The position numbers were made by a program, and so were the translations under genes. From positions 1-60,506 of IMG/VR virus record IMGVR_UViG_3300036800_000125: 60,506 nt of DNA. One strand, written 5' to 3'. Origin of the DNA: a virus. Taxonomy: Duplodnaviria > Caudoviricetes. Below the pieces are notes generated by a model that was not told the DNA's origin, did not search any database, and saw only the letters and a program-made list of their open reading frames with translations. Below, piece by piece: positions 8,367-54,361 of the stretch; position 1 is the stretch's first letter, and each line of letters starts with the position of its first letter.

Positions 8367-8396
8367 ATTATACCCCCGACCGGGCGCGGCCGGTAG
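8367..8396 (-). promoter_or_regulatory. phage promoter
   Basis: CTACCG-N18-TATAAT upstream of the 8342 start. Confidence 0.6.
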
Positions 8397-8414
8397 GGGG
8401 TACGTGGGTGGAGT

Positions 8415-8855
8415 TTATCCTAGGGGGTCGACGGTCCGGCGACCGAGGTCGGTTTCCCTGGCGAACGGCGCATCTCGAGGGAGCTCCTCGCGCCTGGGGA
8501 TGCCGTCGGCGTGGGACCATTCGCCCCGCGCGGTCAGGTAGGCGATGGCGTCGCGAGCGAGGTCACGCAGTTCGGCGTGGCTCAGGCTCATGATGCTGAC
8601 CATCGGGCCATCGGGATTGAAGCGCAGTTCGACCCCGGCTTCCTTGTGGTCATGCATCCAGACCTCGGCCGAAGCAAGCTCGACCGGGTGGTCGTACACC
8701 CGTGTCCGCTTCCAGTCTGTCTCGGCCTGCTGCCTGGCCCACATCGCGATGGCACGCTCGGGGATGTCTGCTCCCCCATGCTCCGTAACGATAGCAACCT
8801 TGTGGCGCTCGGTTGCGCGGGCGATGAATGACTCGCGGCCTTCGGAACTGTTCAT
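8415..8855 (-). CDS. hypothetical protein
   Basis: 146 aa ORF in the leftward operon. Confidence 0.7.
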   Translation of the reverse strand: MNSSEGRESFIARATERHKVAIVTEHGGADIPERAIAMWARQQAETDWKRTRVYDHPVELASAEVWMHDHKEAGVELRFNPDGPMVSIMSLSHAELRDLARDAIAYLTARGEWSHADGIPRREELPRDAPFARETDLGRRTVDPLG

Positions 8856-9112
8856 TTGTTGTAGAGCTCCGTAATCGGTGTGGTGGTTCGGGAGACGAGC
8901 ATGAAGGCGTTCCGGGCGTGGCGATTGGTAACGCCCTCCAGTCCGCCTGCCTCGGGGGAGCGGGCGTCGGGAGCGAGGTCGCTCGTCCGCCGCAGGTAGT
9001 TCTTCACCTCGCTGGCGAGACGAACCGGGGTGCGTCCTGGGTTACGCATCGTATGCAACTCGAGGATCGCCCGGTAGTGGATGTTACTGCTTGTGATAAT
9101 GTTGCTGGCCAT
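8852..9112 (-). CDS. hypothetical protein
   Basis: 86 aa, AAGGAG RBS, ATGA overlap downstream. Confidence 0.65.
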   Translation of the reverse strand: MASNIITSSNIHYRAILELHTMRNPGRTPVRLASEVKNYLRRTSDLAPDARSPEAGGLEGVTNRHARNAFMLVSRTTTPITELYNK

Positions 9113-9311
9113 GGCCGCTCCTTCCTCTTTTCTGAACTGTTGCGCTTCTGCTGCCGCATATGTAGCAGTACCAGCCGTCTCCGGCAGGGATGTAGTAGGG
9201 CCAGTGCCGGTGGGGCATGAATGCCATAATGCCGTAGGTGTCGTAGCGACGCTTCTGGCCTGCCAGCCAGTTACGCCAGTAGAACGTGTAGTACCAGTAG
9301 CTGCCTCTCAT
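9084..9311 (-). CDS. aromatic-rich hypothetical protein with CxxC
   Basis: 75 aa, W/Y-rich, WYCYICG. Confidence 0.5.
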   Translation of the reverse strand: MRGSYWYYTFYWRNWLAGQKRRYDTYGIMAFMPHRHWPYYIPAGDGWYCYICGSRSATVQKRGRSGHGQQHYHKQ

Positions 9312-9574
9312 CGCATCCTTTCCAGCACTTGGGCAATGTGCTCGGACGCTCGTTCTTTCTGCTCGTTACTGCCGAGCAGAAACATCAGAGCCCATCCGTA
9401 GACCAGGTCAGGGACGATCCCGATGAGCGGCGGTATCATCGCGGCCTCTGCTCAACCAGGGCCAGCAGGAGATCCCGCTTGGTCATGACACGACATGCCA
9501 TTATTCCTCCTTAGAGCTGGTAACTCCTCGCCCTGGCCGGGGTGCGGGCCCCGGCCTGAGCGACACGCGGCTAG

Positions 9575-9763
9575 CTAGAGGATTGGCATCGGGTCGGCGA
9601 GGGTGGTGTACTCGTAGACGATGCCGTCTTTTGTTACGCCAGTCCGGCCGCGATACCACCACAGCATAGCGTCGCCACCGGGGGTAGGCCATACATGGAG
9701 GTCCTGCTTGTTGAAGGGGATGTCGCCAACAGCCAGGGCGATGGCGGTGGCCTCGTAGTCCAT
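9575..9763 (-). CDS. small protein, LWWYRGxTG family (paralog of 15929-16177)
   Basis: shared motif F..DL...LWWYRG.TG...D..VYE.T. Confidence 0.75.
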   Translation of the reverse strand: MDYEATAIALAVGDIPFNKQDLHVWPTPGGDAMLWWYRGRTGVTKDGIVYEYTTLADPMPIL

Positions 9764-10764
9764 CAGCCTTCCCCTACCGCTCGGCTGCCCTGGTTCCCAA
9801 CACGGCTTGTGTTGTTAAGATCGGCGGTATTGGCCACATGGACGCCGCGCTCGAAGGCGGCCGGGTTGACAGGCTTGTAGCGATACTTGGGCCTGTTCTT
9901 GGATTCCGCCTTCAGCTCCTCGTCCGTAAGCTTACGGAACATGTCCGGGTTGTCCTTGCGGAACAGGGCGTCTAGGTCGTCAATGCGGGTTCGGAGGATA
10001 AGCTCGCTCCCGCCCGCGCGTCCGCTGGCCACCTCGCGCAACCGACGCGCTAGCTGGGATACGTAGCCGGAGGCGGACGACTTCCGGTGCGATTCGTTAC
10101 GGTCTCGCGCGGCACGCTGGTACGCGCGCTTGTAGTGGGAGCCGACCTGCGTCGCTGGCTGGATACGGCCGTCCTTGTGACGGTAGGGGATCTTCATCTC
10201 CTGCTGCGGCTGGCGCTCCCAGCTGGCTACCTTGTTCCAGCCATCGATGGCGGCGATCTCGAGCCAGTTGTACCCGGCCATGTGGAGGTTGTAGCAGTTC
10301 TCCTCGAGGGACTTGTGGGTCTCGAACCGGGGGATGAGCGCGCCGACCATGTGGAGGCGGAGTGTGGTGTACAGCAGCTCGAAGTAGCGGACGTCGCTCT
10401 CAAAGCCGTACACCTTCGCGAACCAGGAGCCATCGTGCCAGTCGGCGTACGTGCGTACCTTGCAGCGGCAGTGCTCTGCAACGGTCTCGCAGAGCGATCC
10501 GATGTACCCGAGGATGTCGCTGTATCCGCCGACCTCGACGGAGATGATGACCGGCTTGGATTGCTCTTGTCTTGGCCGGGCAGCGTCCGCCTGGGCTGCG
10601 TTAATGCTGTACTTAAGCATGAGCGCGTCCGCCATCTGGGCCGCCAGTGCGGCCTCGTGCGGCGGGGTGCTCTCGTGCTCGGCCTTGGCGATCAGGCCGC
10701 GCACCCTGGACAGGATCTTGTCCAGGTTAATCTCTGGATTCTGGTCCTGTGGCTGTGCTTCCAA
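9763..10764 (-). CDS. DUF2786-domain protein
   Basis: N-terminal DKILSRVRGLIAKAE...EAALAAQMADALMLKYSI matches the DUF2786 pattern. Confidence 0.8.
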   Translation of the reverse strand: MEAQPQDQNPEINLDKILSRVRGLIAKAEHESTPPHEAALAAQMADALMLKYSINAAQADAARPRQEQSKPVIISVEVGGYSDILGYIGSLCETVAEHCRCKVRTYADWHDGSWFAKVYGFESDVRYFELLYTTLRLHMVGALIPRFETHKSLEENCYNLHMAGYNWLEIAAIDGWNKVASWERQPQQEMKIPYRHKDGRIQPATQVGSHYKRAYQRAARDRNESHRKSSASGYVSQLARRLREVASGRAGGSELILRTRIDDLDALFRKDNPDMFRKLTDEELKAESKNRPKYRYKPVNPAAFERGVHVANTADLNNTSRVGNQGSRAVGEG

Positions 10765-10796
10765 CGGGGCCTCCTCGGGTAAGGGGTATGGGTAGA

Positions 10797-10827
10797 AGTA
10801 TACCGTAGATGACGTCGGTAAGGCTAC
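10797..10827 (-). promoter_or_regulatory. phage promoter
   Basis: GTAGCC-N19-TATACT; -35 lies in the arm of a long hairpin (about 10823-10869). Confidence 0.7.
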
Positions 10828-10877
10828 CCCTACGGCTACGCGGTTTAGCCGCGTAGCCGGACGGGTAGCGTGGCTGG

Positions 10878-11165
10878 TTAGTCTGCCAGGGGGTGCCGGG
10901 CACGGGTGGTTACGGTGGTGCCAGGTGCGTACGGGTAGGTAATGCCGGCGGCGACTAGGGAGGTGTTCACGTGCCGCCGACCGGCCGCGTCCTGGCCGTC
11001 CTGGGCACGGTAGGTAATCAGGAGCCAGCGCAGCTCTAGGGTCGGTGCAGTAGCGAGTTGTGCGGCGGTCCGTGCGCCGTATGTATGGGCATGGTACCTG
11101 GTTACCTCGGACAGCAGCTGCTCACGGGGGAGGGATTTCACTTCGGTTAGTAGCTGGTCGTACAT
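10878..11165 (-). CDS. hypothetical protein
   Basis: 95 aa, AGGAGGT RBS. Confidence 0.75.
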   Translation of the reverse strand: MYDQLLTEVKSLPREQLLSEVTRYHAHTYGARTAAQLATAPTLELRWLLITYRAQDGQDAAGRRHVNTSLVAAGITYPYAPGTTVTTRARHPLAD

Positions 11166-11193
11166 TTTACCTCCTACGGTTGGCGTTACCTCA

Positions 11194-11223
11194 ATTATAG
11201 CGTAACTGGACCAGTAGCGCTAC
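11194..11223 (-). promoter_or_regulatory. phage promoter
   Basis: GTAGCG-N18-TATAAT. Confidence 0.75.
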
Positions 11224-11264
11224 CCCCTCGGCCCCTAGCTTTTTACAGCTAGTGCGGGGGTAAG

Positions 11265-11504
11265 CTACTCGTCGTCGTCGCCGGAGCGGAACGTGGCGGT
11301 GCTAATGTCCTCGTACGGGGAGATCCGGCCGAACCGAGCTCCGTACGTCTGGCCGTTGTCCGTAACCACTTCGGCGTCCTCGCCGAAGGACGTAATCGCT
11401 CGGGTAATCAGGGATCGGAGATCGGCCAGGGTCATCGGGTTGTCGATCTGGTATGCGCCGTAACCGAGGTTGTCCTCGATAGGCAGCACTACACGGTCTG
11501 CCAC
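11265..11504 (-). CDS. hypothetical protein
   Basis: 79 aa, GGAGGT RBS. Confidence 0.75.
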   Translation of the reverse strand: MADRVVLPIEDNLGYGAYQIDNPMTLADLRSLITRAITSFGEDAEVVTDNGQTYGARFGRISPYEDISTATFRSGDDDE

Positions 11505-11514
11505 TGTACCTCCG

Positions 11515-11808
11515 TTACATTCTTCCGGTGTTCTGTACCAGCCATCCGCTGGCGTCGCGCGGGTTGTCGAGGAGCTTCTCGGCCTCCCGCTGCGCCTCGT
11601 TCTTGTGCCTGCAGTTGTAGACCGGGTCGCCGTACAGCACGACGTCCCATCCGCCGGTGGCTGCTGGACGTACCTCGATGTGGTCGATGGTGCTGTATCT
11701 GTTCTGGGTGCTGCCCTCGCGCTCCATCTTGTACGCGAGCGTGCCGTAGGCGATGTAGTACGAGGTCCAAACTGTTCCTCGGCCGTTTACCTTGGCGATT
11801 GTGGCCAC
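11515..11808 (-). CDS. hypothetical protein
   Basis: GTG start after GAGAGGA; protein-like C-terminal part of the track ORF. Confidence 0.65.
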   Translation of the reverse strand: MATIAKVNGRGTVWTSYYIAYGTLAYKMEREGSTQNRYSTIDHIEVRPAATGGWDVVLYGDPVYNCRHKNEAQREAEKLLDNPRDASGWLVQNTGRM

Positions 11809-11888
11809 GGTGTTTGCTGTCCTCTCTGGCAGGGTACTGCTAGCCCTAAGACCGAGTGGTACGTGGCCACTCGGTCCCAGGCTACGCA

Positions 11889-12677
11889 CTACTCGCCGGT
11901 GTCGGTCGTGTCGGCTTCGGTGGTCTCGGCGGCGGCTTCGGTGGCCGGTGCTTCCTCCGCGCTGTTGGCGGCGTCGTTCTCCTCGCGCCAGTCGCTGCGG
12001 TCCGGGCGGGGGAGCACGGCGAGGAAGCGCTTGCGGTCGGTGGGCATCCCGTGCAGCCACTGGGCGACGCACTGGCGGATCTCGTCGTCACCCTTGTACC
12101 CGGCGTGGATGAGCACGGCGGCGGCGCTGTCGGGGTCCGCGAGGTTGGCGTCGAGGATGTCCTGGACGACTCGTCCAGCAGCTTCAGCCACGAGCGTGGC
12201 GAGCTCGGTCTTGGCCGCCTTGCGGGCGCTGGCCGCGGTGGCGCTGGCGGTGCCTGTGGCTGCTCCCTTGGCGATTGCTGGCAGTCCTGCCAGACAAGTG
12301 TGGAACTGGACGCTCTGGGTGTAGTTATGCTTGTTTAGCCAGGACATGGGGGCCTCCGCCTCGTCGGCGGCGGTCTTGCCCTTGGGGGTGTCGTCCTGGT
12401 ATGTCTCGTGGATCTGGTCGGACCAGACCTCCATGATGACCTCGCGCTGGTTGCGGACGCCCTCGATGGTGTAGTCATCGAGGCCAGCGTAGCTGGAGCG
12501 CTTCTTTGCGGCCGCGTACTGCTTGCAGCCTTGCAGGTGGATGACCCAGTCGTAGTCGCCCTTGCCCATGAGCAGGGCGTTGACGGTGACTGGCGTCTTG
12601 AGGGTCGCTGCCTTGGCCTGTGGTGCCGGGGCGGCAACCGCAACGGCGGGTCTTGCCTGTCCTGCCTTGGTAGTCAT
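11889..12677 (-). CDS. Ala-rich hypothetical protein with acidic tail
   Basis: 262 aa, AAGGAA RBS, own promoter. Confidence 0.8.
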   Translation of the reverse strand: MTTKAGQARPAVAVAAPAPQAKAATLKTPVTVNALLMGKGDYDWVIHLQGCKQYAAAKKRSSYAGLDDYTIEGVRNQREVIMEVWSDQIHETYQDDTPKGKTAADEAEAPMSWLNKHNYTQSVQFHTCLAGLPAIAKGAATGTASATAASARKAAKTELATLVAEAAGRVVQDILDANLADPDSAAAVLIHAGYKGDDEIRQCVAQWLHGMPTDRKRFLAVLPRPDRSDWREENDAANSAEEAPATEAAAETTEADTTDTGE

Positions 12678-12769
12678 TGTTCGTTCCTTTCTTGCTGTCT
12701 CCTGGCCCCTCGGGGCCCTTTACCGGGGGTACCGGGGCCCTTGCTCCCCGCGTCGCTCCCACTAACCCC

Positions 12770-12799
12770 ATTATACGCTACGCGCTGTAACCGCGCTAC
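12770..12799 (-). promoter_or_regulatory. phage promoter
   Basis: GTAGCG-N18-TATAAT. Confidence 0.75.
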
Positions 12800-12822
12800 C
12801 CCTTACCATAGATTACCGCTGG

Positions 12823-13179
12823 TTATTTTCGGTTATTTTTATTTTTCCGATAGGCTTCGCTGCGACGATTCCGGGCAGCCTCACGGTGGGAAAGGTAGCC
12901 AGTGTCGCGCTGCGCGCGGTGGAGTATGTTCGCAACGGTAATGTGGTCGTAGGTGCGTATGTCTCCATTCAATTCGTACGATATTTCCGCTGCATATCTG
13001 GACAGTAGTGCTATTTCCGGTGTAACTCCTTCCAGATGAGGGCCCTGGGGGAGCTGGGCTACACGGCGGAGATAGGCGGTAACATCGTCCATCGCCTGTC
13101 CGAATGATAGTTCTGGGTTCTGTGTCATGTGAAGGCGGAGGATTACAGTGATGGCTGCATTGGTAGTTCTCTTGTCCAT
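12823..13179 (-). CDS. hypothetical protein, basic C-terminus, lower GC
   Basis: 118 aa; ATG 7 nt below a -10 box (probably leaderless). Confidence 0.65.
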   Translation of the reverse strand: MDKRTTNAAITVILRLHMTQNPELSFGQAMDDVTAYLRRVAQLPQGPHLEGVTPEIALLSRYAAEISYELNGDIRTYDHITVANILHRAQRDTGYLSHREAARNRRSEAYRKNKNNRK

Positions 13180-13186
13180 GATGAAT

Positions 13187-13217
13187 AGTATATACCCTTC
13201 GTATAAGTGATGGCTAC
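13187..13217 (-). promoter_or_regulatory. phage promoter
   Basis: GTAGCC-N19-TATACT. Confidence 0.6.
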
Positions 13218-13551
13218 GGTAAGTATACTATATTCTCCGCCGTACCTACCCCGGGGGGTCCCTAAACTATAAGGGTATTTGCCATGGTCAATGCCATGTT
13301 TTTTGAATTTAGGGGGAGGTCCCTAAACCCCTTGTGCAATTGTGGCTAGAGGGTGTTCGTGTGTGAAGTTTTCAATGAGGGTACAGGAGAGTATGAACGG
13401 CTGGAAACCATGGCTGCAGTGCTGTTAAGCTTGATTTCCTATTATTCTAGTATTATTTATTATATACATATGGAGAAAGTAAGGAGGTTAGGGACCTAGG
13501 TCGGGCACACGGGCCTAACGTTTCCGCTTCTAAACTATTTGCATGAAATGG

Positions 13552-13612
13552 CCATTTTTCAACCAACTTTCGGCCATTTTTCTACCATTTTCTAGCCATT
13601 TTCTCCATTTTC
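13552..13612. repeat. six CCATTTT(T)C-like units at about 11 bp period
   Basis: copies at 13552, 13563 (degenerate), 13574, 13585, 13596, 13605. Confidence 0.85.
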
Positions 13613-14055
13613 TATGACTCGCCCGGGATTCCTGGTGTCGACTTCTAACGTCGGCTTTACCTATTAGGGACGAAACCGGGCGTGCAAACTACGCTCAGTA
13701 ACCGGAATCTCCAGCGAATTACATCGCCACAGGTACCTAAACGGTCGATCAGATCTACCCCCCCTGTCTCCGAGCTTCGAAGCGTTACTGGCGACTACGA
13801 TTGCTTTGTCACTGCAACTACGTAGCGTAACCATTTCCTGCAGGAAATTGGCAACAGGAAAATTAAAACGTTTTAATTCCGAAATTCTAAACTACTCCAA
13901 ATTCCCACCGTTTACTGCCTTTTCACCATAAGTTACTGGTGAGTACGGTTTCCATATGGAACGGTACTCAGTACCCTTCCATATGGCGTTCGAATGGCCG
14001 TAGCGTGGAGTAAATCGGCCCTAGTGATACCACTATTCGGCCGTATCCAGCCACT

Positions 14056-14090
14056 AAAAACGACCCCACCCCGAAGGGCAGGGCCGTCTT
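14056..14090 (-). terminator. Rho-independent terminator of the early cassette
   Basis: 13 bp stem with G-U pairs, UUCG loop, U-tail (GACGGCCCTGCCC-TTCG-GGGTGGGGTCGTT-TTT). Confidence 0.85.
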
Positions 14091-14136
14091 TCTGGCGTTC
14101 TCCTACGCTTTTCCGCCGCCGCTCGTGTAGTTTTGC

Positions 14137-14256
14137 CTAGAACTCCTCTCTGGACGTGCGAATCTGGAGGACGAGGCACCAGTAGGCGAGGGATGCGTTG
14201 AACAGCATCTTGGCTGCACGCGTGTAGTAATACAGCGTGGCTTCGTAGATGGTCAT
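14137..14256 (-). CDS. 39 aa hydrophobic peptide
   Basis: translated by hand, MTIYEATLYY...; GGAGG RBS. Confidence 0.55.
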   Translation of the reverse strand: MTIYEATLYYYTRAAKMLFNASLAYWCLVLQIRTSREEF

Positions 14257-14288
14257 TGAGCCTCCATGAGGCTAGGTGTGGATTCGTG

Positions 14289-14355
14289 GGGCTAGGTTGC
14301 CCGGCCAGCCCTGGAACGATACTGAGTACCGTTCCAGGACCAGCCTAGCGGACTA
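14289..14355 (-). repeat. two-hairpin intergenic element, copy A
   Basis: TAG-NN-CGCTA-[hairpin]-GGGCAACCTAGCCC on the minus strand. Confidence 0.8.
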
Positions 14356-14529
14356 TCCTTCGTTGGTGACGACGATCAGGATGGAATTGCCGTATCGAGA
14401 CCAGGTTCCTGCATAGCTCAGGCCTCGACTTTTTTCGCAGTCGGCAGTCCAGGTACCATTTTCGTCTGGGAACACTCGGGCGGTGGGGTCCTTGACCTCG
14501 TCCTGAACAGCCTTGATGATGTCTTCCAT
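14353..14529 (-). CDS. 58 aa hypothetical protein
   Basis: translated by hand, MEDIIKAVQD...; abuts the upstream stop. Confidence 0.6.
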   Translation of the reverse strand: MEDIIKAVQDEVKDPTARVFPDENGTWTADCEKSRGLSYAGTWSRYGNSILIVVTNEG

Positions 14530-14530
14530 C

Positions 14531-14881
14531 TCAGGCCATGTGGATGGTGATCGGGCTCATGTCCTCGGCGCAGTCCTCGGTGCGGATGGCGGCCGCCAGG
14601 GTCTCGAGCGCCAGAGCGACGTCTTCGCGGTCCAGGCCATCGCCTAGTGCGGTCCGCGCCGCCAGTTCCGAGTAGCGCTGGAGCATCAGGAAGGCCTCGC
14701 TGGCCGTTACGGAGGTCGGGCCCTCCATCCGGCCGCCGTGCGTTTCGTACTGGAACGCGCTGTCCTGGTGGGCGTTGTAGGCGTCGGCCGCATTGGTGTT
14801 GTCGTACGGGCCAAGACCGAGCTCCTGGTTCATGCGCTCGCCATCGGCCTCGTAGTCGGATTGGTCAAGGTCTTTGGGCAT
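14531..14881 (-). CDS. acidic hypothetical protein
   Basis: 116 aa, AAGGAG RBS. Confidence 0.75.
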   Translation of the reverse strand: MPKDLDQSDYEADGERMNQELGLGPYDNTNAADAYNAHQDSAFQYETHGGRMEGPTSVTASEAFLMLQRYSELAARTALGDGLDREDVALALETLAAAIRTEDCAEDMSPITIHMA

Positions 14882-14883
14882 CG

Positions 14884-15216
14884 CTACTCCTTGAAGGGTA
14901 CGGACTGGTATGTGACGCCGACGTCTGGGAAGTGCTGGGCGTTGGCTATGCCGCCGACGTCGTCGATGAGCGAGCAGACGGCCATCATGTCATCGCCGAG
15001 GTCGACATCCACGCCGTTGAGCAGGATGCGGCCGGTGTCGTTGAACTCGATGGTGATTGCGCTTCTTCCGTGGTCGCCGTCATCCTCGCAATCGATGGAG
15101 GAGACGTGTTCGCACAGGTAGATCGACTTCACAGTGTCGGCGTTGTGGTAGACCAGCGTTACATCCACTGGTTCTTCCAGCACCCAGGCGGGCAGATGGT
15201 TGATCATTTCGGGCAT
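14884..15216 (-). CDS. acidic hypothetical protein
   Basis: 110 aa, GGAGGAG RBS. Confidence 0.75.
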   Translation of the reverse strand: MPEMINHLPAWVLEEPVDVTLVYHNADTVKSIYLCEHVSSIDCEDDGDHGRSAITIEFNDTGRILLNGVDVDLGDDMMAVCSLIDDVGGIANAQHFPDVGVTYQSVPFKE

Positions 15217-15219
15217 GTT

Positions 15220-15381
15220 TTACTCCTCCACTACCAGGGTGGGCTCGCCGTTGTGGTCGGTCACATCGAGCACGGTCTCGCAGTAGGGGACGCGCTCGGC
15301 CTTGGCGATGGCCTCATCGACGTCGGCGGCCTCGATGTCGCTGCCGTAGATGCCGTTGATGGTCATGGTTCGGAATTTCAC
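15220..15381 (-). CDS. 53 aa acidic protein
   Basis: translated by hand, VKFRTMTING...; AAGGGG RBS. Confidence 0.6.
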   Translation of the reverse strand: MKFRTMTINGIYGSDIEAADVDEAIAKAERVPYCETVLDVTDHNGEPTLVVEE

Positions 15382-15412
15382 ATCTCGCCCCTTTCCTTTT
15401 GGTTATAGCTCA

Positions 15413-15442
15413 AGTATAGCGTATACCGGCTGGTAACGCTAG
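15413..15442 (-). promoter_or_regulatory. phage promoter
   Basis: CTAGCG-N18-TATACT, next to a long hairpin (about 15441-15480). Confidence 0.75.
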
Positions 15443-15489
15443 CCCTAGCGTAGAAAATTTGCAACTTTCTACGCTGGGCTACGCGCGGC

Positions 15490-15648
15490 CTAGCTGAAGA
15501 CGAATCCGTAGGCGTCGAAGGTGAGCGTTGCCTGGAACATGGTAAGTTCTTCGTAGGTCCTGCCCCACATGTATATGGACAGGTAATCGATGTTCATCGG
15601 TGCCAGCCCGTCGCGGGCACACCCTGCCTTGTACTCGTCGAGGGTCAT
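15490..15648 (-). CDS. 52 aa hypothetical protein
   Basis: MTLDEYKAGC..., ATGA overlap. Confidence 0.65.
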   Translation of the reverse strand: MTLDEYKAGCARDGLAPMNIDYLSIYMWGRTYEELTMFQATLTFDAYGFVFS

Positions 15649-15932
15649 TCTTCCTCCCAGTCGTAGATGCCGAGTGAGGCGATGTGGTCGGTGAGGTACT
15701 GCGGGGCAAGTTGCACCCCGAGTGGTCGCCACTGGAAGGTGAACTTGAGGTGGGCGCAGTTCCGGTGGGCCTTGAGGGTGCGCAGGCCGACGCGGGCGGA
15801 GGGCAGGTCGTAGATCGGACGGCCGCCGTACTCCGTGCCGAAGTACACGACCGGCGTGTGGTTGGATTGCGTGAGCCAGCAGACCCCGGGATTGCGGATC
15901 GCACGCTGGCTGCGTGGCTTGCGGTAGATCAT
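15645..15932 (-). CDS. hypothetical protein
   Basis: 95 aa, ATGA overlaps at both ends. Confidence 0.7.
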   Translation of the reverse strand: MIYRKPRSQRAIRNPGVCWLTQSNHTPVVYFGTEYGGRPIYDLPSARVGLRTLKAHRNCAHLKFTFQWRPLGVQLAPQYLTDHIASLGIYDWEEE

Positions 15933-16177
15933 GGTTGCTCGTCCTCCGGTGGGGTCATGAGCCGGTCAGGCGTGTGCTCGTACACCTCGTCGTCTACCAT
16001 GTTGTAGTAGCCGGTAGCACCTCGGTACCACCAGAGCACGACGGAGCTGTCCTCTGGGTGCTCGTCGATTGTGAGGTCTTCTGGTGTGAAGTCGCGCTGC
16101 CCCGGGCGTCGGAGGTCTTCCTCCAGCGCGTTGGAGATCGCCATCCATGCCTTGAAGCTGCTGGCGTTCGCTTCCAT
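15929..16177 (-). CDS. small protein, LWWYRGxTG family (paralog of 9575-9763)
   Basis: GAGGAG RBS; shared motif. Confidence 0.75.
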   Translation of the reverse strand: MEANASSFKAWMAISNALEEDLRRPGQRDFTPEDLTIDEHPEDSSVVLWWYRGATGYYNMVDDEVYEHTPDRLMTPPEDEQP

Positions 16178-16193
16178 GGTACTCCTCCTCTTT

Positions 16194-16249
16194 GGGCTAG
16201 GCAGCCCGGCCGGAGCTCCGTGGCAGCGGAGCGCCAGCCTAGTGGCCTA
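16194..16249 (-). repeat. two-hairpin intergenic element, copy B
   Basis: TAG-NN-CACTA-[hairpin]-GGGCTGCCTAGCCC. Confidence 0.8.
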
Positions 16250-16507
16250 GCGGATGAGGCTGGTGGCGGGGCACCAGTAGGTGCCATCCTTCTTGGCCTT
16301 GACGGTGCAGAAGATGGATCCGTCGAAACTGCCGTACATGATCCACTTGCCGACACCGAACTGCGGTTCTTCGTAGATGTTGTTGTCGTCGTCCTTGATG
16401 TAGTACTCTGCGTTGGCCGGGTCGGCGTAGGCCGGGTCAACCGTGGCCCACCGGCGACGGAAGTGGTCAGCGGCGGCCGCACGGGCGGTGGGGAAGTTCG
16501 TTTCCAT
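16247..16507 (-). CDS. hypothetical protein
   Basis: 86 aa; ATG 6 nt below a -10 box. Confidence 0.75.
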   Translation of the reverse strand: METNFPTARAAAADHFRRRWATVDPAYADPANAEYYIKDDDNNIYEEPQFGVGKWIMYGSFDGSIFCTVKAKKDGTYWCPATSLIR

Positions 16508-16513
16508 AGCCTT

Positions 16514-16544
16514 ATTCTACCTCCATGCTGACTAGTAAGGCTAG
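16514..16544 (-). promoter_or_regulatory. phage promoter, probably leaderless
   Basis: CTAGCC-N19-TAGAAT-AAGGCT-ATG; near-duplicate of 17341-17386. Confidence 0.7.
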
Positions 16545-16593
16545 CCCCTAGCCGGAAAATTTTCTGCAATTCTCCGGCTACGGGCGAACCCGG

Positions 16594-16662
16594 CTAGCGA
16601 CGAGGTGTTGCGAAGAATGCGGTGAACAGGATGATGACGCCGATCAGGGCAAGGCCGAACAT
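16594..16662 (-). CDS. 22 aa single-TM peptide (MFGLALIGVIILFTAFFATPRR)
   Basis: translated by hand; starts just after the upstream TAG. Confidence 0.45.
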   Translation of the reverse strand: MFGLALIGVIILFTAFFATPRR

Positions 16663-16666
16663 GCGG

Positions 16667-16867
16667 CTAGGCTCCGATGGGCTGGGCGTCTTGCAGGAAG
16701 CGGGCCCAGCCACCGGCGTAGTGGCGGCTGATGCCCCGGATGACTTGCTCGTCGGTCAGGGAGCCGAGGCTGCCCTCACCCCAGGAGCAGTCGGCGATCC
16801 AGTCGCGCGCGGCCTTGATGTCAGCCGGGGTGAGGGTTGACGTTGTTAGCGGGTAGCGCTTGGCCAT
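16667..16867 (-). CDS. hypothetical protein
   Basis: 66 aa, GGAGG RBS. Confidence 0.75.
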   Translation of the reverse strand: MAKRYPLTTSTLTPADIKAARDWIADCSWGEGSLGSLTDEQVIRGISRHYAGGWARFLQDAQPIGA

Positions 16868-16897
16868 GGTAAGCCTCCGTGAGGCTGGTAGGGAGCT

Positions 16898-16947
16898 GGG
16901 CTAGGTCGCCCGGGCAGTGCCCCGTAGGGCACCACCCTAGCGCGCTA
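16898..16947 (-). repeat. two-hairpin intergenic element, copy C
   Basis: TAG-CG-CGCTA-[hairpin]-GGGCGACCTAGCCC. Confidence 0.85.
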
Positions 16948-17343
16948 GAGCTCCTGGCGGGGCACATCCCGCCCGCAGTGGTAGCAGTGCTCACTTGCGT
17001 TATCCGGGTTAGCGAACACCCCGGGATGGATACAGTCGCGCGTCACGGATTCGCCGTAGTTCAGGTTCAGGGTTGCGGCCTCGTCAGCCGCCCCCAGCAC
17101 GACGGGCAGGTCATCGCCGAAGTCACGGATCAGATCAGAGCAGCCGCCCCACTCAGCCCAGACCACGGCGAGCGGGCGGAGGTCGTCAAAGACGAGCAGG
17201 ACGGCCGGGAACAGGCCGACCGTACCGGCGGGCTGGTAGGTAAAGCCGCCGGGGGAGATGGTACCGCGCGTTATCGTCACGGGCGAGCCGTCACGGAACC
17301 AAAGCGGCAGTTCAGCCGGGGGAACCGGCAGGTTTTCATTCAT
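16945..17343 (-). CDS. hypothetical protein, C-terminal Cys/His cluster
   Basis: 132 aa; CIHP...HCYHCG. Confidence 0.75.
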   Translation of the reverse strand: MNENLPVPPAELPLWFRDGSPVTITRGTISPGGFTYQPAGTVGLFPAVLLVFDDLRPLAVVWAEWGGCSDLIRDFGDDLPVVLGAADEAATLNLNYGESVTRDCIHPGVFANPDNASEHCYHCGRDVPRQEL

Positions 17344-17349
17344 AGCCTT

Positions 17350-17379
17350 ATCGTACCTCCTATTGGCTAGTAAGGCTAC
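17350..17379 (-). promoter_or_regulatory. phage promoter, probably leaderless
   Basis: GTAGCC-N18-TACGAT-AAGGCT-ATG. Confidence 0.7.
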
Positions 17380-17424
17380 CCCCTAGACTGGTAACGTTGC
17401 GTTACCAGCCCGAGGGAAGCACGG

Positions 17425-17733
17425 CTAGCGCCAGTCAGAGCGGTCAGGAACGGGCAGGTCAGCGGTAGGCCAGCCGAGCGCGGGGGAGGACAGGTGGTGA
17501 AGCTGGTTCGAGATGAGCTTGGCGACTTCGGCCTGAAGCTCAGCGGGCACCAGTTCGGTGACCAGGGTACCGGCGGCCAGGATGATCGCCAGGTCGACGT
17601 CACGCCGCCAGTCGGTCGCCGTACGCGGCTTGACCGTTACGGTCCGCGCGGGGTGAGCCTTGGCGAAGGCCTGCGGGTCCCGCTGCGCCAGTTCGAAGGC
17701 GGACCGGAGCGCGAGGAGCGATGAAGTTGTCAT
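17425..17733 (-). CDS. hypothetical protein
   Basis: 102 aa, GAAAGG RBS. Confidence 0.7.
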   Translation of the reverse strand: MTTSSLLALRSAFELAQRDPQAFAKAHPARTVTVKPRTATDWRRDVDLAIILAAGTLVTELVPAELQAEVAKLISNQLHHLSSPALGWPTADLPVPDRSDWR

Positions 17734-17754
17734 GGTAGTGCCTTTCTCGGTTTT

Positions 17755-17807
17755 GGGCTAGGTCGCCCGGGCGGTACCCCCGGAGGGGGTATCACCCTAG
17801 CGCGCTA
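17755..17807 (-). repeat. two-hairpin intergenic element, copy D
   Basis: near-identical to copy C outside the hairpin tip. Confidence 0.85.
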
Positions 17808-18095
17808 GGCAAAGTCACCGAGGCACCCGGAGCAGGTACCGTTAGCCGACCGCGTTACGAAGTGACGGTCACAGATATTAGACTGGCCCTTACGCGGGCC
17901 CCGTAGGACTACGGGGCGGTAGCCGCCGCTTAGCGCGCGGTCAGCTAGCGCGTCAAGTACGTAGGCCGGGGGCATCGCGCTACCGGGATCGCACTCACAT
18001 TTTTCGTAGTTCATTAGCTGGGTAGGCGTATAGGGCCTACGGTTAGCGGCTAGTAGCTTCAGTTTTTGGGGACTAGGCCCCTTACGCCCGCTCAC
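17805..18095 (-). CDS. first gene of the early cassette; C-terminal Zn-finger-like (CDRHF...GTCSGC)
   Basis: 96 aa; AGGGG RBS; unusual CTA/GTA codon use. Confidence 0.65.
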   Translation of the reverse strand: MSGRKGPSPQKLKLLAANRRPYTPTQLMNYEKCECDPGSAMPPAYVLDALADRALSGGYRPVVLRGPRKGQSNICDRHFVTRSANGTCSGCLGDFA

Positions 18096-18196
18096 TTTTT
18101 ACCCCTACCCCTTACGTACGCGGGCCCTAGCGGGCCCTACCCGCGCGGTACGCGGGCCCGGGGGCCCCGCCCGCTACCTTTTTAGCTATTACCTAA

Positions 18197-18226
18197 AGGT
18201 TACCCCCTACCTAGGCAAAAAGCTAC
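18197..18226 (-). promoter_or_regulatory. phage promoter heading the early cassette
   Basis: GTAGCT-N18-TAACCT. Confidence 0.6.
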
Positions 18227-18391
18227 CTTTTGCGGTAACGAAATGGTAACGTTAGCTAGTACCTTAGGACCTACCCCCTACCGGGCCCTACCCCGAAATT
18301 GCCCCTACCCGGCCTGGAGCGGGCCCCTAAGTGGACTTCTACCTACCCCCGTCCTACCCGCCCGGTCGGCGTCCCGGGCCCGTAAAATGCC

Positions 18392-18518
18392 ATCGTTCGG
18401 TCCTTCGTACGACCTAACGACTGGAATTCGTACGGTCGTACGTATGACCTGGACCGGTCGTACGGTCGTTCGTATCATTCGAGTTAGAACCGCCGGTCGT
18501 TCGGTCGTTCGTACGTTC
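18392..18518. repeat. cluster of GGTCGT(A/T)CG / TCGTACG short repeats
   Basis: multiple imperfect tandem copies visible. Confidence 0.75.
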
Positions 18519-18579
18519 AGTCCCGCAAGTTGGCGAAAAATCTGAACAGTCATGGTTATACCCTGGAATAGTTCGAAAA

Positions 18580-18623
18580 TCCCAAAAAGTGCAAAACGAT
18601 CGCAATTTCCCAAAAAGTGCAAA
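18580..18623. repeat. 16 bp direct repeat TCCCAAAAAGTGCAAA x2
   Basis: 18580-18595 and 18608-18623, within a run of A-tracts. Confidence 0.85.
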
Positions 18624-18704
18624 CACAATTTCCAAATTGTACTTCATGCAACCGGTTGACCAGCGGATTAGGCGAAACCCCCGTTAGGGGGTAACCTACT
18701 ATCT

Positions 18705-18902
18705 ATGGGTCGGCACATAGGGTATGTAATCCCGCAAGAAGAGAAGGATAAGATCGCTGCGACGCAGCGTCGCACCTGGGCGCTCAAACGCCGTCCATGG
18801 ACCGATGCTTCCCGCATGATCCTCGCCGCCATTAGCGACGGTGACCAGGCCCTGGCCCACGAGATCCTCGATGCTTACATGAACACAGAACAGGAGGGGT
18901 AA
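18705..18902 (+). CDS. hypothetical protein (probably leaderless)
   Basis: 65 aa; TAACCT 7 nt upstream of the ATG. Confidence 0.7.
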   Translation: MGRHIGYVIPQEEKDKIAATQRRTWALKRRPWTDASRMILAAISDGDQALAHEILDAYMNTEQEG

Positions 18903-19495
18903 TGGAAGCAGCAGAAGCAGCACAAAGCCTTCTTAGAGATGTTCTCGAGTCGCTCTGTCGGCGAGACGGCCTTCCGCTGGACAGCATCGTCGAGCCTGGT
19001 AAGCCAGCCAGGAACTACGAGCTTGCCGAACGCCTTGGTATCGGTCATGTTTTCGGCATCGGCCCCTGTTCTCCCGAAGAGCAGGTTGATGATCTTCGAA
19101 GGAAGGAGGAATGGTTCCAGGACAACGTAGGCGATCCAGATCTCTATGGAGGCTTCTCCCCGCTCGAGCAGGCCAGCCTCGGTCTCGGTAAACTGACATT
19201 CGAGTACCGTCCTGGCGATCACAAGGACGCCAACGGCAACTGGCGTGGCCCGGAAACGGTCGTACGAGGACAGGGCAGCAGCATGCTCGATCCGGACGAT
19301 ATCATCATCGATCGCCTCCATCGTTACTACGGCGGCATCCGCCCGATCTCGACGAAACCCGGCCAGCAGTATCCGGCCACGCCGAACTACGATTGGACAT
19401 GGAACCTCACCCGGGACCAGGTCGAAGACGCCCTCGATATTACGCTCAACGGGAACGCCAGCAAAGAGGAGAGCGACGACAGCGATGGAAATTAA
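18902..19495 (+). CDS. hypothetical protein
   Basis: 197 aa, TAATG coupling. Confidence 0.75.
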   Translation: MEAAEAAQSLLRDVLESLCRRDGLPLDSIVEPGKPARNYELAERLGIGHVFGIGPCSPEEQVDDLRRKEEWFQDNVGDPDLYGGFSPLEQASLGLGKLTFEYRPGDHKDANGNWRGPETVVRGQGSSMLDPDDIIIDRLHRYYGGIRPISTKPGQQYPATPNYDWTWNLTRDQVEDALDITLNGNASKEESDDSDGN

Positions 19496-20057
19496 CGAAT
19501 CTGTCTGGGTGGTTACGGCTCCTGGGATGTTGGTCGGGGCCCGTATCCTGGGCAAGGCATATGACAGAGGAGCCAAAGGCCACAGCGGAAAGACCTGGCT
19601 CGATGTATGTATCCTTGGGCAGCATCTTCCACAGATGTACAGCAACGGCGATATCCGGATCCTCACAAGCGAGAATTGTCCTGCGCTTGGGCTCTGCCCG
19701 GAGTGCTTCGGCTTCGGGGACATGGACGACCCGCCCGCAGACAATTTTCTCTCGCTCGCGCGTTCGATTGACCAGATGGCGAACCTTTGCACTACATGCG
19801 GTGGAAGCGGACGTCCGGCAATTCGGGTGAGCGTACATCGGGAACCCAACGCCACCGAATATGTTCCGCCGACCGGCACGATAACCACTGTTCCGCATGC
19901 ATACATTCCGCCGTTGTCCGACGAGCTGCTCGGTTTCTATGCTGAACCCGAGATGAGGACGCTGTTCGGGTCAAATCCCGACGACTGCCTCGCCTGCGGC
20001 CTCCCTCCAGGCGACGAGAAGCACGCGCGCGGCACTTTCGCGAACATCCATAATTAA
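19485..20057 (+). CDS. protein with DnaJ-type CxxCxGxG Zn-finger repeats
   Basis: CPECFGFG ... CTTCGGSG; additional CLACG. Confidence 0.7.
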   Translation: MEINESVWVVTAPGMLVGARILGKAYDRGAKGHSGKTWLDVCILGQHLPQMYSNGDIRILTSENCPALGLCPECFGFGDMDDPPADNFLSLARSIDQMANLCTTCGGSGRPAIRVSVHREPNATEYVPPTGTITTVPHAYIPPLSDELLGFYAEPEMRTLFGSNPDDCLACGLPPGDEKHARGTFANIHN

Positions 20058-20064
20058 GGCCATC

Positions 20065-20208: not shown

Positions 20209-20210
20209 CG

Positions 20211-24153: not shown

Positions 24154-24200
24154 ATAGCCCTCCCTGCGGAGTAGCGGTAAATGGCAGGGAGGGCTATAGT
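24154..24200 (+). promoter_or_regulatory. promoter embedded in a 14 bp hairpin, leaderless start of the packaging operon
   Basis: ATAGCCCTCCCTGC/GCAGGGAGGGCTAT inverted repeat; GTAGCG-N18-TATAGT-N6-GTG. Confidence 0.7.
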
Positions 24201-52437: not shown

Positions 52438-52467
52438 GCAGCCCCGGTCGGGGCGGACCGGGGCTGC
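52438..52467. terminator. hairpin between convergent operons
   Basis: GCAGCCCCGGTC / GACCGGGGCTGC. Confidence 0.8.
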
Positions 52468-52470
52468 GGT

Positions 52471-52572
52471 CTAGAGGACGATAGCGATGATGATGGCGGC
52501 CAAGAGCGTAGCCGCCGCGGTTATGCCGATCTGAAGGATGCCGTGCCGGGCGAGCTCCTTAACGAGCGTCAC
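52471..52572 (-). CDS. 33 aa single-TM peptide
   Basis: translated by hand; GTGA overlap with the NlpC/P60 stop. Confidence 0.5.
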   Translation of the reverse strand: MTLVKELARHGILQIGITAAATLLAAIIIAIVL

Positions 52573-53033
52573 AGTCGCACCACCCGGTAGTACATGGTCG
52601 GATGCCAGTAGGCGTTCCAGTGATGAGCTTCAACGCGGGTGCCCGGCTCAAGCGCGCCGAGCGTTACGTCGTGACCACCGTCAACCAGCTCGACGTGGCC
52701 GCTGCCGTAGAAGGCGAGATCTCCGGCGCGCGGGAGCCACGTCCGTACGAGGATGCTGCTAGCCAGCATCCCGTAGGTGGTCCGGGGCATGTTGACGCCG
52801 GTCTGGTGTGATGACCAGTAGACCAGGCCAGAGCAGTCGAACGTTCCCGGTCCCGCTGATCCGTAGACATACCAGTCACCGATACGGGTCTGCGCCACAG
52901 CGAGAATACGACTGCCCAGCGTCCCGCTGCTCGCGTACGCTTGCGTAGCGAAGAGGCCACACATGCAAGATAGCGAGAGCAGGACGGCCAGGACCGGAGC
53001 CGCAAGGCGACGTGAGATCTTAGCAACCGTCAT
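52569..53033 (-). CDS. secreted NlpC/P60 peptidoglycan endopeptidase
   Basis: signal peptide; YVYGSAGPGTFDCSGLV, GDLAFY, GHVEL. Confidence 0.92.
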   Translation of the reverse strand: MTVAKISRRLAAPVLAVLLSLSCMCGLFATQAYASSGTLGSRILAVAQTRIGDWYVYGSAGPGTFDCSGLVYWSSHQTGVNMPRTTYGMLASSILVRTWLPRAGDLAFYGSGHVELVDGGHDVTLGALEPGTRVEAHHWNAYWHPTMYYRVVRL

Positions 53034-53886
53034 AAGGACTCCAGTTGTTAGCTCCACCGGCGGTCGCCATGGCGTTCGCGAATACCTGGTTCTGCTCGGC
53101 CACCGAGGCATTGCCGAAGCTGGACGCACCACCTCCGTACGCGATCCAGGTCGAGTAGCTGAACTGGTAGAGCCCGTAGTGTCCGCTCGCGTTCATGACC
53201 TGGGAGTTACCACCGGACTCGGCCGCGATCACACATGACTGGAAGCTGCTGCTTCCGGTGTACGAGATGGTAGGAGCCGAAGTTGTCGGAGCTGAAGTTG
53301 AAGCCGAGCGATGAAGTTCAGAGCAGGGGATGTCGTACCCGTCTCCGTCGCCATCTCCGCACTGGTAGGTCTGCGACTGCACGCCAGAGCGTCCCACCGA
53401 AGTGGTAGCGGACACCGTGTGAGCGGGCCGTTGCGGCTGAGGAGGCGAAACAGGAGACATAGCGCTCGGTGCGGCCAGAACGCGAGGGACAGTCGGTATG
53501 ACCAGAGTCTGGCCGACGTAGATGATGTTGGCGTACTTGATGATCTTCTTGTTGGCCCAGTAGATGGTCGTCCAGTACTTGGACGAACCGTAGATCTGAG
53601 CAGAGATGGAGCTGAGGGTGTCTCCGGTGTTAACCTGGTACAGGCTTGTTTCGGACACCGCCTTCCCGGCAACGGTAGCTGGCTTTACGACGGTGGGGGT
53701 TAGCCTGACCGGCTGAAGCCGAACAGGCTGTATCCTGACTGCCACGGTTGCCGCGCTAGCTCCGGGCATTGGGCCGCCCGCTGCGAAGTAGGGGATACCG
53801 CACACCACGAGGGTCAGGCACAGTGCTACAATAACGCACCGGCCGACGTCAGACCATCCTATCAGTTCACGATTGAGCATTATCAT
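53020..53886 (-). CDS. secreted LysM plus resuscitation-promoting-factor-like transglycosylase
   Basis: YQVNTGDTLSSIS...IYWAN...IYVGQTLVIP LysM; CVIAAESGGN...YGLYQF...TW...GG...AS..EQ Rpf core. Confidence 0.88.
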   Translation of the reverse strand: MIMLNRELIGWSDVGRCVIVALCLTLVVCGIPYFAAGGPMPGASAATVAVRIQPVRLQPVRLTPTVVKPATVAGKAVSETSLYQVNTGDTLSSISAQIYGSSKYWTTIYWANKKIIKYANIIYVGQTLVIPTVPRVLAAPSAMSPVSPPQPQRPAHTVSATTSVGRSGVQSQTYQCGDGDGDGYDIPCSELHRSASTSAPTTSAPTISYTGSSSFQSCVIAAESGGNSQVMNASGHYGLYQFSYSTWIAYGGGASSFGNASVAEQNQVFANAMATAGGANNWSPYDGC

Positions 53887-54169
53887 CCGATCCTAACAGG
53901 GACCCGCCATATACTGCAGCGGGACTGGTGAAGGATGACGCTACTCTCCGGTAGCCTGGCCATAACGGCCGAATTACGATTCCGTTACGAACCCGTTATG
54001 AACCGGAACGTCAGCCTCGCTTGGGTCGGTAGGGCCGGTATAGGCGGCGACGGGCCCGTCGGGCGCGTGGCGGGGCGGTGGCTACGGCTAGAGAAAAGGG
54101 GGTCCGTCGGCTACCGGGTAGGGGGCGCGGCGGCCGAGCCTTTAGGGCGAGGCTCCGGGATTCTTGCCT

Positions 54170-54325
54170 AGACGTGAAGACAGGCTCCGGCGGCTATTCG
54201 CAAGAGTAGCCGGAGCCTGTCTTCGGGGAGATCAGCAATGATGCTGCGCGCGGAGAGTTGCACGGGAGGTTACATGGGGCTCCTTCCTCCGGGGACAGGG
54301 ACATCGTCCTAGTAACCAGTATACG
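54170..54325 (-). ncRNA. candidate small RNA / minigene transcript
   Basis: bounded by a consensus promoter and a terminator; contains SD-AUG-UAA. Confidence 0.4.
54176..54224 (-). terminator. long hairpin terminator
   Basis: 15 bp perfect stem GAAGACAGGCTCCGG/CCGGAGCCTGTCTTC; same CTTCACGTCTA tail as the 52438 hairpin. Confidence 0.8.
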
Positions 54326-54331
54326 CTAGCT

Positions 54332-54361
54332 AGTATACGCCGCGTCCGGGCGGGTGGCTAG
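54332..54361 (-). promoter_or_regulatory. phage promoter
   Basis: CTAGCC-N18-TATACT; a second TATACT at 54318-54323. Confidence 0.7.

Follow-up and report, generated by a model that had tools for sequence, protein, structure and literature searches.

A predicted family of sigma-70-type promoters with a TAGC-type −35 box, shared by a small clade of uncultivated soil phages

The IMG/VR virus record IMGVR_UViG_3300036800_000125 carries, in front of many of its small genes, a repeated element of the form STAGCS-N18/19-TANNNT. This raises the question of whether the element is a promoter, and if so, what reads its unusual −35 box. The window, i.e. the whole stretch of DNA that we analyzed, is the entire record (G000, 60,506 bp, linear, CheckV completeness 64%). 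On our gene map, three blocks can be distinguished: a leftward block at 1-18 kb, a rightward block at 18.7-52.4 kb and a second leftward block at 52.5-60.5 kb. Genes for terminase, portal, protease, capsid, tail and tape-measure proteins and for lysis are found in the rightward block, and the leftward blocks hold a primase-polymerase, a split DnaE-type polymerase and many small open reading frames (ORFs) without a known family. An earlier note on this DNA had listed 11 copies of the element and described it as a genome-wide non-canonical promoter. Our analysis suggests that, with high probability, this phage and the small clade of uncultivated Actinomycetota soil phages around it use these elements as their main promoters. 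Judged from the sequence, this is a real, conserved and clade-specific promoter family of sigma-70 type and not a new kind of element.

We counted the motif on both strands of the window and in 100 dinucleotide-preserving shuffles of it. With an 18-nucleotide spacer (N18) it occurred 8 times against a shuffle mean of 1.03 (standard deviation 1.04), and none of the 100 shuffles reached this number. The N19 form occurred 4 times against a mean of 0.84 (standard deviation 0.84), a count reached in 2 of 100 shuffles. The remaining spacers between 10 and 29 nucleotides (nt) gave 0-3 matches each, N13 excepted with 7. Several of the N13 matches among those listed appear to be the same promoters in a register 5 nt upstream, with TACGCT before TATAAT.

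All 12 exact N18/N19 matches are intergenic on the gene map, which is crude, based on codon usage and leaves 17.6% of the bases non-coding. On the same map, a gene on the same strand starts within 700 nt of 11 of the 12 matches. By inspection, 8 lie 6-92 nt from a start codon and the copy at 54332 is without a nearby start. Three exact matches had been absent from the earlier list, 17732-17761 (minus strand), 15445-15475 (plus) and 53951-53980 (plus). All three are misplaced or misoriented, and their number is about that expected by chance.

Nine of the 11 listed copies are exact matches (10797, 11194, 12770, 13187, 15413, 16514, 17350, 24171 and 54332). The two variants fared differently: the CTACCG copy at 8367 stands, scoring 15.2 bits and having CTAGCC in its counterpart in the related record G001, whereas the copy at 18197 is weak, with 12.8 bits and a poor −10 box. 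The promoters occupy 8.3-17.4 kb and one position each near 24.2 and 54.3 kb; the structural block at 26-52 kb contains none, so that 'genome-wide' was too broad a term. Their −10 boxes are TATAAT (three times), TATACT (four times), TATAGT, TAGAAT and TACGAT.

As an independent ranking, we scored the window with a weight matrix derived from 42 sites in four metagenomic relatives, with the window excluded. The top eight ranks were all sites of the earlier list. The copies and the folds beside them are as follows, with scores in bits and with hairpin z-scores calculated against 100 mononucleotide shuffles:

8367..8396, minus strand: promoter CTACCG-N18-TATAAT (variant box), 15.2 bits, 24 nt before the ATG of the DUF3631 gene 7134-8342
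8373-8400, minus strand: palindrome spanning the −35 box of the promoter 8367..8396 to the edge of its −10 box, z −2.6
10797..10827, minus strand: promoter GTAGCC-N19-TATACT, 23.7 bits, 32 nt before the start of the DUF2786 gene (9763-10764)
10834..10858, minus strand: GC-rich hairpin, terminator-like, without a T run, adjoining the promoter 10797..10827 upstream, z −5.8
11194..11223, minus strand: promoter GTAGCG-N18-TATAAT, 20.8 bits, 28 nt before a 95-aa ORF (10878-11165)
11235-11252, minus strand: hairpin upstream of the promoter 11194..11223, z −5.2
12770..12799, minus strand: promoter GTAGCG-N18-TATAAT, top score of 27.8 bits, 92-nt leader before a 262-aa ORF (11889-12677)
13187..13217, minus strand: promoter GTAGCC-N19-TATACT, 13.5 bits, −10 box ending 7 nt before the ATG of a 118-aa ORF (12823-13179)
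15413..15442, minus strand: promoter CTAGCG-N18-TATACT, 22.4 bits, 31 nt before the GTG of a 53-aa ORF (15220-15381); it serves the minus-strand ORFs 15220-15381 and 14884-15216
15447-15475, minus strand: hairpin upstream of the promoter 15413..15442, z −4.9
16514..16544, minus strand: promoter CTAGCC-N19-TAGAAT, 17.6 bits, −10 box ending 6 nt before the ATG of the ORF 16247-16507
16551-16578, minus strand: hairpin upstream of the promoter 16514..16544, z −4.8
17350..17379, minus strand: promoter GTAGCC-N18-TACGAT, 16.3 bits, −10 box ending 6 nt before the ATG of the ORF 16945-17343
17388-17408, minus strand: hairpin upstream of the promoter 17350..17379, z −4.0
24171..24200, plus strand: promoter GTAGCG-N18-TATAGT, 17.3 bits, −10 box ending 6 nt before the GTG of a 191-aa ORF (24207-24782), which has a weak helix-turn-helix match and lies upstream of the terminase gene
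24156-24195, plus strand: palindrome enclosing the −35 box of the promoter 24171..24200 and extending to the edge of its −10 box, z −3.2
54332..54361, minus strand: promoter CTAGCC-N18-TATACT, 25.6 bits, no adjacent ORF, next leftward gene 445 nt downstream
18197..18226, minus strand: doubtful copy GTAGCT-N18-TAACCT, 12.8 bits, poor −10 box, no same-strand start within about 460 nt
3057..3086, minus strand: tentative extra copy CGAGCG-N18-TAAGCT (variant box), 15.9 bits, 43 nt before the primase-polymerase gene 1001-3013

To assess conservation, we searched with the portal protein, which led to 41 related IMG/VR loci, and five long records (G001-G005) were searched in full. The window, G001, G002, G003 and G005 are referred to as TAG-type records; G004 is not of this type. 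Compared with a backwards control, the whole records gave 14 matches against 1 in G001, 22 against 1 in G003, 17 against 1 in G005 and 6 against 3 in G002, as opposed to 1 against 5 in G004. A sharp peak at N18 was found in each TAG-type record (8 matches in the window, 17 in G003, 10 in G001, 10 in G005 and 6 in G002, with 0-8 at neighbouring spacers), and the spacer histogram of G004 showed no such peak. The five TAG-type records together hold 71 matches, 56 of which fall between genes, with a non-coding share of only 15-19% in these records. Fifty-three of the 71 are both intergenic and followed by a same-strand gene start within 700 nt, and these form our curated set.

The consensus of the 53 curated sites is a-GGG-S-TAGC-S, 16 variable nt and s-G-TAtAcT. 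The spacer is N18 in 41 and N19 in 12 of them, and a G stands immediately 5′ of the −10 box in 44. With TANNNT required by the search, the −10 box is TATACT in 20/53 sites and TATACT, TATAAT or TATAGT in 28/53. When all 117 TATA[ACG]T sites of the six records were aligned, the sole upstream signal was T, A and C at positions −23, −22 and −20. The placement before orthologous genes is also conserved. The motif precedes the orthologues of the 262-aa gene in all three records shown (G000, G001 and G002), with unrelated spacer sequences, and those of the DUF2786 gene in four of the five TAG-type records shown (G000, G001, G003 with GTAGCT, and G005), again with different spacers; it also precedes the DUF3631 gene in G000 and G001. 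Motif, spacing, placement, orientation and conservation are thus directly observed. The predicted promoter would sit before most early genes in this phage and its close relatives.

The motif is absent from the phages Dagobah and phiC31, and the strict pattern GGGSTAGCS-N16-SGTATACT was found in only 19 stretches across IMG/VR. Among the 16 new records with the strict pattern, G021, G024 and G025 are probably further users of the motif, as is probably G014; the others look like chance. One contig (C741) of G032, a metagenome-assembled genome (MAG) labelled Planctomycetota, holds four same-strand motif matches within 14 kb, and the portal on a second contig of this MAG (L058) is 83% identical to that of the window. 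Both are probably phage contigs of this clade that were binned into an unrelated MAG, and hence give no host evidence.

The lysis domains, the portal relatives and matches to Trebonia indicate a host among the Actinomycetota. The lysis genes encode Rv2525c-like, PASTA, LysM, Rpf-like and NlpC/P60 domains. The portal relatives at 40-51% identity are for the most part prophages, located in genomes of Streptomyces, Kitasatospora, Nonomuraea and Streptosporangiaceae, and the Rpf-like window protein is about 50% identical to Trebonia proteins. The nearest isolate by capsid is Streptomyces phage Dagobah, with 47%. A megablast of positions 10000-18500 against 50,697 phage records returned no near-identical isolate, and neither Rfam at the gathering threshold nor a tRNA scan gave a match in the window.

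Is the box an ordinary −35 hexamer? G004 lies within the same portal clade (support 100/100, with no resolved branching inside the clade) and largely shares the structural genes. Its promoters, (A)A-CTTGCS-N18/19-TANNNT, resemble those of the window (G004 is the IMG/VR record behind the locus L039) in having a 6-nt box, an N18/19 spacer, a TANNNT box and, in three of its listed sites, a G before the −10 box. They differ in having CTTGCS after A-rich bases instead of STAGCS after GGG, and the offset is the same as in the TAG-type boxes. We therefore counted trinucleotides at a hexamer spacing of 17 upstream of oriented intergenic TANNNT boxes. TAG was the commonest in the five TAG-type records, in the window jointly (5/66, 12/58, 8/50, 9/59 and 7/36), and TTG occurred in none of the 269 cases. 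In G004, TTG was leading with 4/38 and TAG occurred once. The claim of a sigma70-like −10 box combined with a −35 box other than TTGACA is supported. TTGACA-type promoters are likewise not enriched at 8-26 kb of the window (8 against 5.1±2.2).

For comparison, a mapping study in Streptomyces lividans gives a consensus of TANNNT and TGAC with a gap of 18-19 nt, and states that about 20% of the mRNAs are leaderless (PMC6742748). Based on the equal offset of CTTGCS in G004 and on this TGAC gap, the box is most likely an ordinary −35 hexamer TAGCSN, with A at the second base in place of the T of the actinobacterial TTGCSN; an alignment one base over, with TAGC against TGAC, would also be conceivable. 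In the TAGCSN register the spacer is 17 nt in 41 and 18 nt in 12 of the 53 sites, which is the usual sigma-70 range. The long spacer of the earlier note is therefore a product of the register that was chosen, and the novelty would shrink to the A for T at the second position and the upstream GGG.

G004 also shows two promoter styles of its own (loci L055-L057, about 9,950-16,100 and 17,500-21,100). Its leftward block has TGGTACAAT-type extended −10 boxes, and its rightward genes are preceded by near-identical copies of AACTTGCG-N18-TGTGGTAGACT.

Four copies had been proposed to yield leaderless mRNAs, and this layout was confirmed. Between −10 box and start codon there are 7 nt at 13187 and 6 nt at 16514, at 17350 and, to a GTG, at 24171, distances that fit leaderless mRNAs. 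The same 6-7 nt were found at four curated sites in the relatives and at one G005 site outside the intergenic filter. Other copies, with leaders of 24-92 nt, have GGAGG-like sites in the leader. The association with palindromes holds as well, with strong hairpins upstream of five boxes and two boxes inside palindromes. The strong hairpins lie 5-12 nt upstream of the boxes at 10827, 11223, 15442, 16544 and 17379 (z −4.0 to −5.8), while the folds at 12799, 13217, 18226 and 54361 are not significant (z −1.1 to +1.8). The G001 counterpart of the site at 8396 keeps the palindrome layout with different arm sequences. None of the upstream hairpins has a T run and none is among the terminator-like rows of a terminator scan; their position at gene ends suggests that they are most likely terminators of the preceding unit.

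One further hairpin is found near the strong promoter without an ORF. At 54176-54224 (minus strand), about 108 nt downstream of the promoter at 54332, lies a 49-nt hairpin with a perfect 16-bp stem. Promoter and hairpin may produce a short non-coding transcript, for which Rfam gave no match.

Transcription itself, its start sites, the role of the hairpins and the reader of the box are deduced from this arrangement, and we propose the following course. Bacterial RNA polymerase with a primary-type (group 1/2) sigma factor would bind the −10 box TAtAcT; an invariant A2 and T6 and a TATAAT-like −10 box suggest recognition by region 2 of such a factor. The box (a)GGG-S-TAGC-S, in −35 register, would be recognized by region 4 of the sigma factor or by a protein substituting for region 4. 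Transcription would start 6-8 nt past the −10 box, and a start codon lying exactly at that point would make the mRNA leaderless; otherwise the mRNA would have a leader of about 20-130 nt with a GGAGG-type ribosome site. The upstream hairpins would end the preceding unit, giving terminator-promoter cassettes between small early genes.

The elements share with actinobacterial sigma-70/HrdB/SigA promoters the TANNNT −10 box, a spacing of 17-18 nt and the upstream placement on the same strand. The leaderless form is shared too, with some −10 boxes ending 6-7 nt before AUG or GUG, and so are the GGAGG-type leaders. They differ in the −35 box, which is TAGC(S) and not TTG or TGAC, in the GGG before it and in the G before the −10 box (44/53). 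In T4 middle promoters, the host-type −10 box is kept and a MotA box takes the place of the −35 box, with AsiA acting in sigma appropriation. The present elements likewise combine a host-type −10 with a phage-specific box for the −35 in many copies across non-structural genes. Unlike in T4, no MotA or AsiA homologue was found, the box is in exact −35 register while that of T4 is centred near −30, and these phages are without the canonical early promoters that T4 has. Stoperators of mycobacteriophage L5 are asymmetric repressor sites repeated in small intergenic gaps, one of which overlaps a −35 box. Similar to these, our sequence is short, asymmetric, repeated between genes and oriented with transcription; in contrast to them, it keeps a fixed distance of 18/19 nt to a −10 box, no repressor or integrase was detected and the box also occurs in coding DNA. 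In a literature search that was not exhaustive, no account of a phage −35 box of TAGC type came up. The SD13 promoter of phiSASD1 is described as a canonical sigma-70 promoter (PMC13722658).

What reads the box? Our tentative first choice is a host-supplied unusual or alternative primary-type sigma factor, the region 4 of which would accept or prefer A at the second −35 position. We rate lower, as doubtful, an altered −35 specificity (TAGC for TTGC), arising either from a phage protein that takes over region 4 or from a primary-type host sigma factor that reads the −35 box differently; in both cases Actinomycetota would gain a promoter-recognition specificity that is new. An unrecognised phage protein as the reader is rather unlikely, and the remaining explanations, even taken jointly, are less likely still. 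The host-supplied reader is favored because these phages offer a phage factor no TTG-type promoter for its initial expression: with TTG in 0/269 cases, it is not obvious how a phage adaptor would be produced in the first place. If the ends of G005 adjoin, as the gene order of the window suggests, this record would lack only part of the tape-measure gene, leaving little space for a hidden early region.

Several points weigh against our overall explanation of the elements. In five actinobacterial genomes the TAG-type leaderless pattern was never above a control that is not matched for stop-codon depletion (28 against 29, 4 against 16, 9 against 24, 3 against 10 and 20 against 32), while the TTG-type leaderless signal was clear in two of the five (49 against 11 and 45 against 19). 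Promoters of ordinary actinomycetes thus do not resemble the element, which argues against the host primary sigma factor as the reader. In whole-genome counts over five actinobacterial genomes, GSTAGCS-N18-TANNNT and STTGCS-N18-TANNNT both fell below their backwards controls in what is an insensitive test, and a GSTAGCS/STTGCS count in five MAGs with related phage contigs was below control too. No N18 peak was found in 80 actinomycete prophage loci (1.46 Mb). The records are fragmentary (CheckV 48-77%), so the gene of a factor or canonical early promoters could lie off-contig. The comparison with G004 relies on few sites (about 5-6), three of them near-copies of one another. Finally, the maps are crude, as shown by the plus-strand gene 14932-15408, which is false and an antisense artefact.

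We weighed the host-supplied reader against an unrecognisable phage protein that remodels or replaces host region 4, or that is itself a divergent sigma factor. A box of about 9-10 nt that is asymmetric, clade-specific and absent from the 80 prophage loci, Dagobah and phiC31 would suit such a protein. So would the TTG-type, and not TAG-type, signal of ordinary actinomycete genomes and the layout resembling T4 middle promoters. Most early proteins, moreover, matched no known family in the scans of the window proteins. However, no sigma-70, WhiB, MotA or AsiA gene was found within the searched records. The phage sigma factor that the earlier note had considered did not turn up: Sigma70 r2 was found in 0/11 records (G000-G005, G014, G021, G024, G025 and G028), Sigma70 r4 had no match in the window, the only record searched for it, and the one Sigma70 r4_2 match, in a G001 ORF without a counterpart in the window, stayed below threshold (22.7 bits against a cut-off of 25.7). 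WhiB was not found in the five TAG-type records. MotA and AsiA families were missing among the 79 window proteins (E<=1e-3) and the 21 that were rescanned (E<=1), a result that leaves divergent analogues possible. Moreover, no small gene is common to all five TAG-type records and missing from G004, and the absence of TTG at spacing 17 again leaves such a protein without a canonical promoter for its first expression. A phage activator, the other proposal, or an adaptor may still be involved, with no candidate gene found for either. These results make the reading unlikely, though it is the strongest of the rivals.

Considerably less probable is an operator, in which the promoters would run on the −10 box and its upstream G, and GGG-S-TAGC-S would be the site of a repressor or timing regulator overlapping the −35 position. 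Actinobacterial −35 boxes are often weak, and the sites lack symmetry, lie between genes and follow the direction of transcription. The window has 23 GGSTAGCS boxes, 12 of them intergenic, and 6 of these 12 are without a −10 box at N18/19; the CTAGCC core moreover recurs in a second intergenic repeat lacking a −10 box, described below. Yet the other 11 of the 23 boxes are coding, so that the box by itself is not under selection as an independent site, and the fixed distance to the −10 box (41 N18 and 12 N19 of 53) is promoter-like and not needed for an operator. No other −35 candidate is present at these promoters, and repressor or integrase families were not found among the window proteins. 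We give hardly any weight to the proposal of the earlier note that the box is modification-proof, i.e. that it avoids TG, TC, GA and CA since the phage DNA is modified there and the host sigma factor needs an unmodified box. Its sole support is that by inspection STAGCS holds none of these dinucleotides and TTGACA three. The −10 boxes TACGAT, TAGAAT and TACACT and the spacers contain GA or CA, a modified T would not account for the specific selection of A, and the window shows no genome-wide avoidance (strand-symmetrised odds ratios of 1.02 for CA/TG and 1.14 for GA/TC). None of the 79-83 predicted window proteins matched a DNA-modification family. Least probable of all is that the motif arose by chance or from the composition of intergenic DNA rich in TAG. 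TAG words are indeed enriched between genes (CTAGC 46 times against 19.5 expected), and three of the 12 exact matches look random, but the N18 count was reached by 0/100 shuffles, the one-spacer peak appears in the window and four relatives, the foreign-trained matrix recovers the sites and their placement before orthologous genes is conserved.

Besides the promoters, the window carries a second repeated intergenic element, consisting of CTAGG(C/G)TGG, an inner GC hairpin and, after it, CCGGGCnnCCTAGCCC. The ribosome site and ATG of the following small gene come 15-35 nt after the element. Its four clear copies occur in this record only, with none in the five relatives:

14257-14352, minus strand: second repeated element, clear copy
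16178-16250, minus strand: second repeated element, clear copy
16868-16948, minus strand: second repeated element, clear copy
17734-17815, minus strand: second repeated element, clear copy
11809-11892: possible fifth copy

Except for one TACCAT, a chance match overlapping the ATG at 17732, the element, which has a CTAGCC core, lacks a −10 box at N18. Its role may be that of a terminator, of a processing site or of a regulator site.

Two further regions carry repeats. The 971-nt gap between the divergent blocks (17734-18704) is packed with direct repeats. It has four copies of a repeat of about 21 nt, CCGGTCGTWCGGTCGTTCGTA, at 18389-18513, several CCCTACCC / GGGTAGG units at 18100-18380 and two exact copies of TCCCAAAAAGTGCAAA at 18580 and 18608. 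Such an iteron-like layout could mark an origin of replication or a control region. The region 12678-14136 (about 1.46 kb) is poorer in G+C and contains few called genes; it includes the 118-aa ORF 12823-13179 with its leaderless layout, and three copies of a 22-nt unit, TGGCCATTTTTCTACCATTTTC, at 13549-13613.

Among the genes, the gene 3176-3865 (plus strand) is the sole conserved gene opposing the leftward block and is present in all five relatives. The 162-nt gap between it and the primase has TAGC boxes on both strands, including CTAGCG-N17-TAGCTT at 3033-3061 (plus). The 229-aa product of this gene was considered as a regulator and dropped, since it falls among RuvC-like resolvases in the ESM Atlas (score 0.94). 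The 262-aa early protein, judged from its composition, does not look sigma-like. A pattern search of IMG/VR gave no relatives of it; in an iterative search of the six records it shares a domain with the 102-aa protein, and the 262-aa protein is missing from G005. The split DnaE-type polymerase occupies 55273-59666 (minus strand), with a PHP-domain ORF at 58791-59666 and the polymerase body at 55273-57573. The roughly 1.2 kb between the parts hold two small ORFs and a stretch whose translation looks by eye like an HNH endonuclease; in G002 the two DnaE parts are nearly adjacent.

Promoter families of phages reveal how a virus uses or redirects the polymerase of its host. Here, about 50 sites in five diverged genomes combine a host-like −10 box with a −35 box in which one core base is swapped, and a sister phage keeps the ordinary base. 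The contrast of TAG and TTG between sister phages is a clean natural experiment on −35 recognition, with G004 as its natural control. It could indicate a new specificity of sigma region 4 or a new sigma-hijacking protein in Actinomycetota, and the elements may be a source of orthogonal promoters for actinomycete engineering. If a host sigma factor merely tolerates the box, the finding would be a modest aid to annotation. The rule a-GGG-S-TAGC-S-N16-sG-TAtAcT would be usable to annotate transcription units and leaderless genes in these uncultivated phages.

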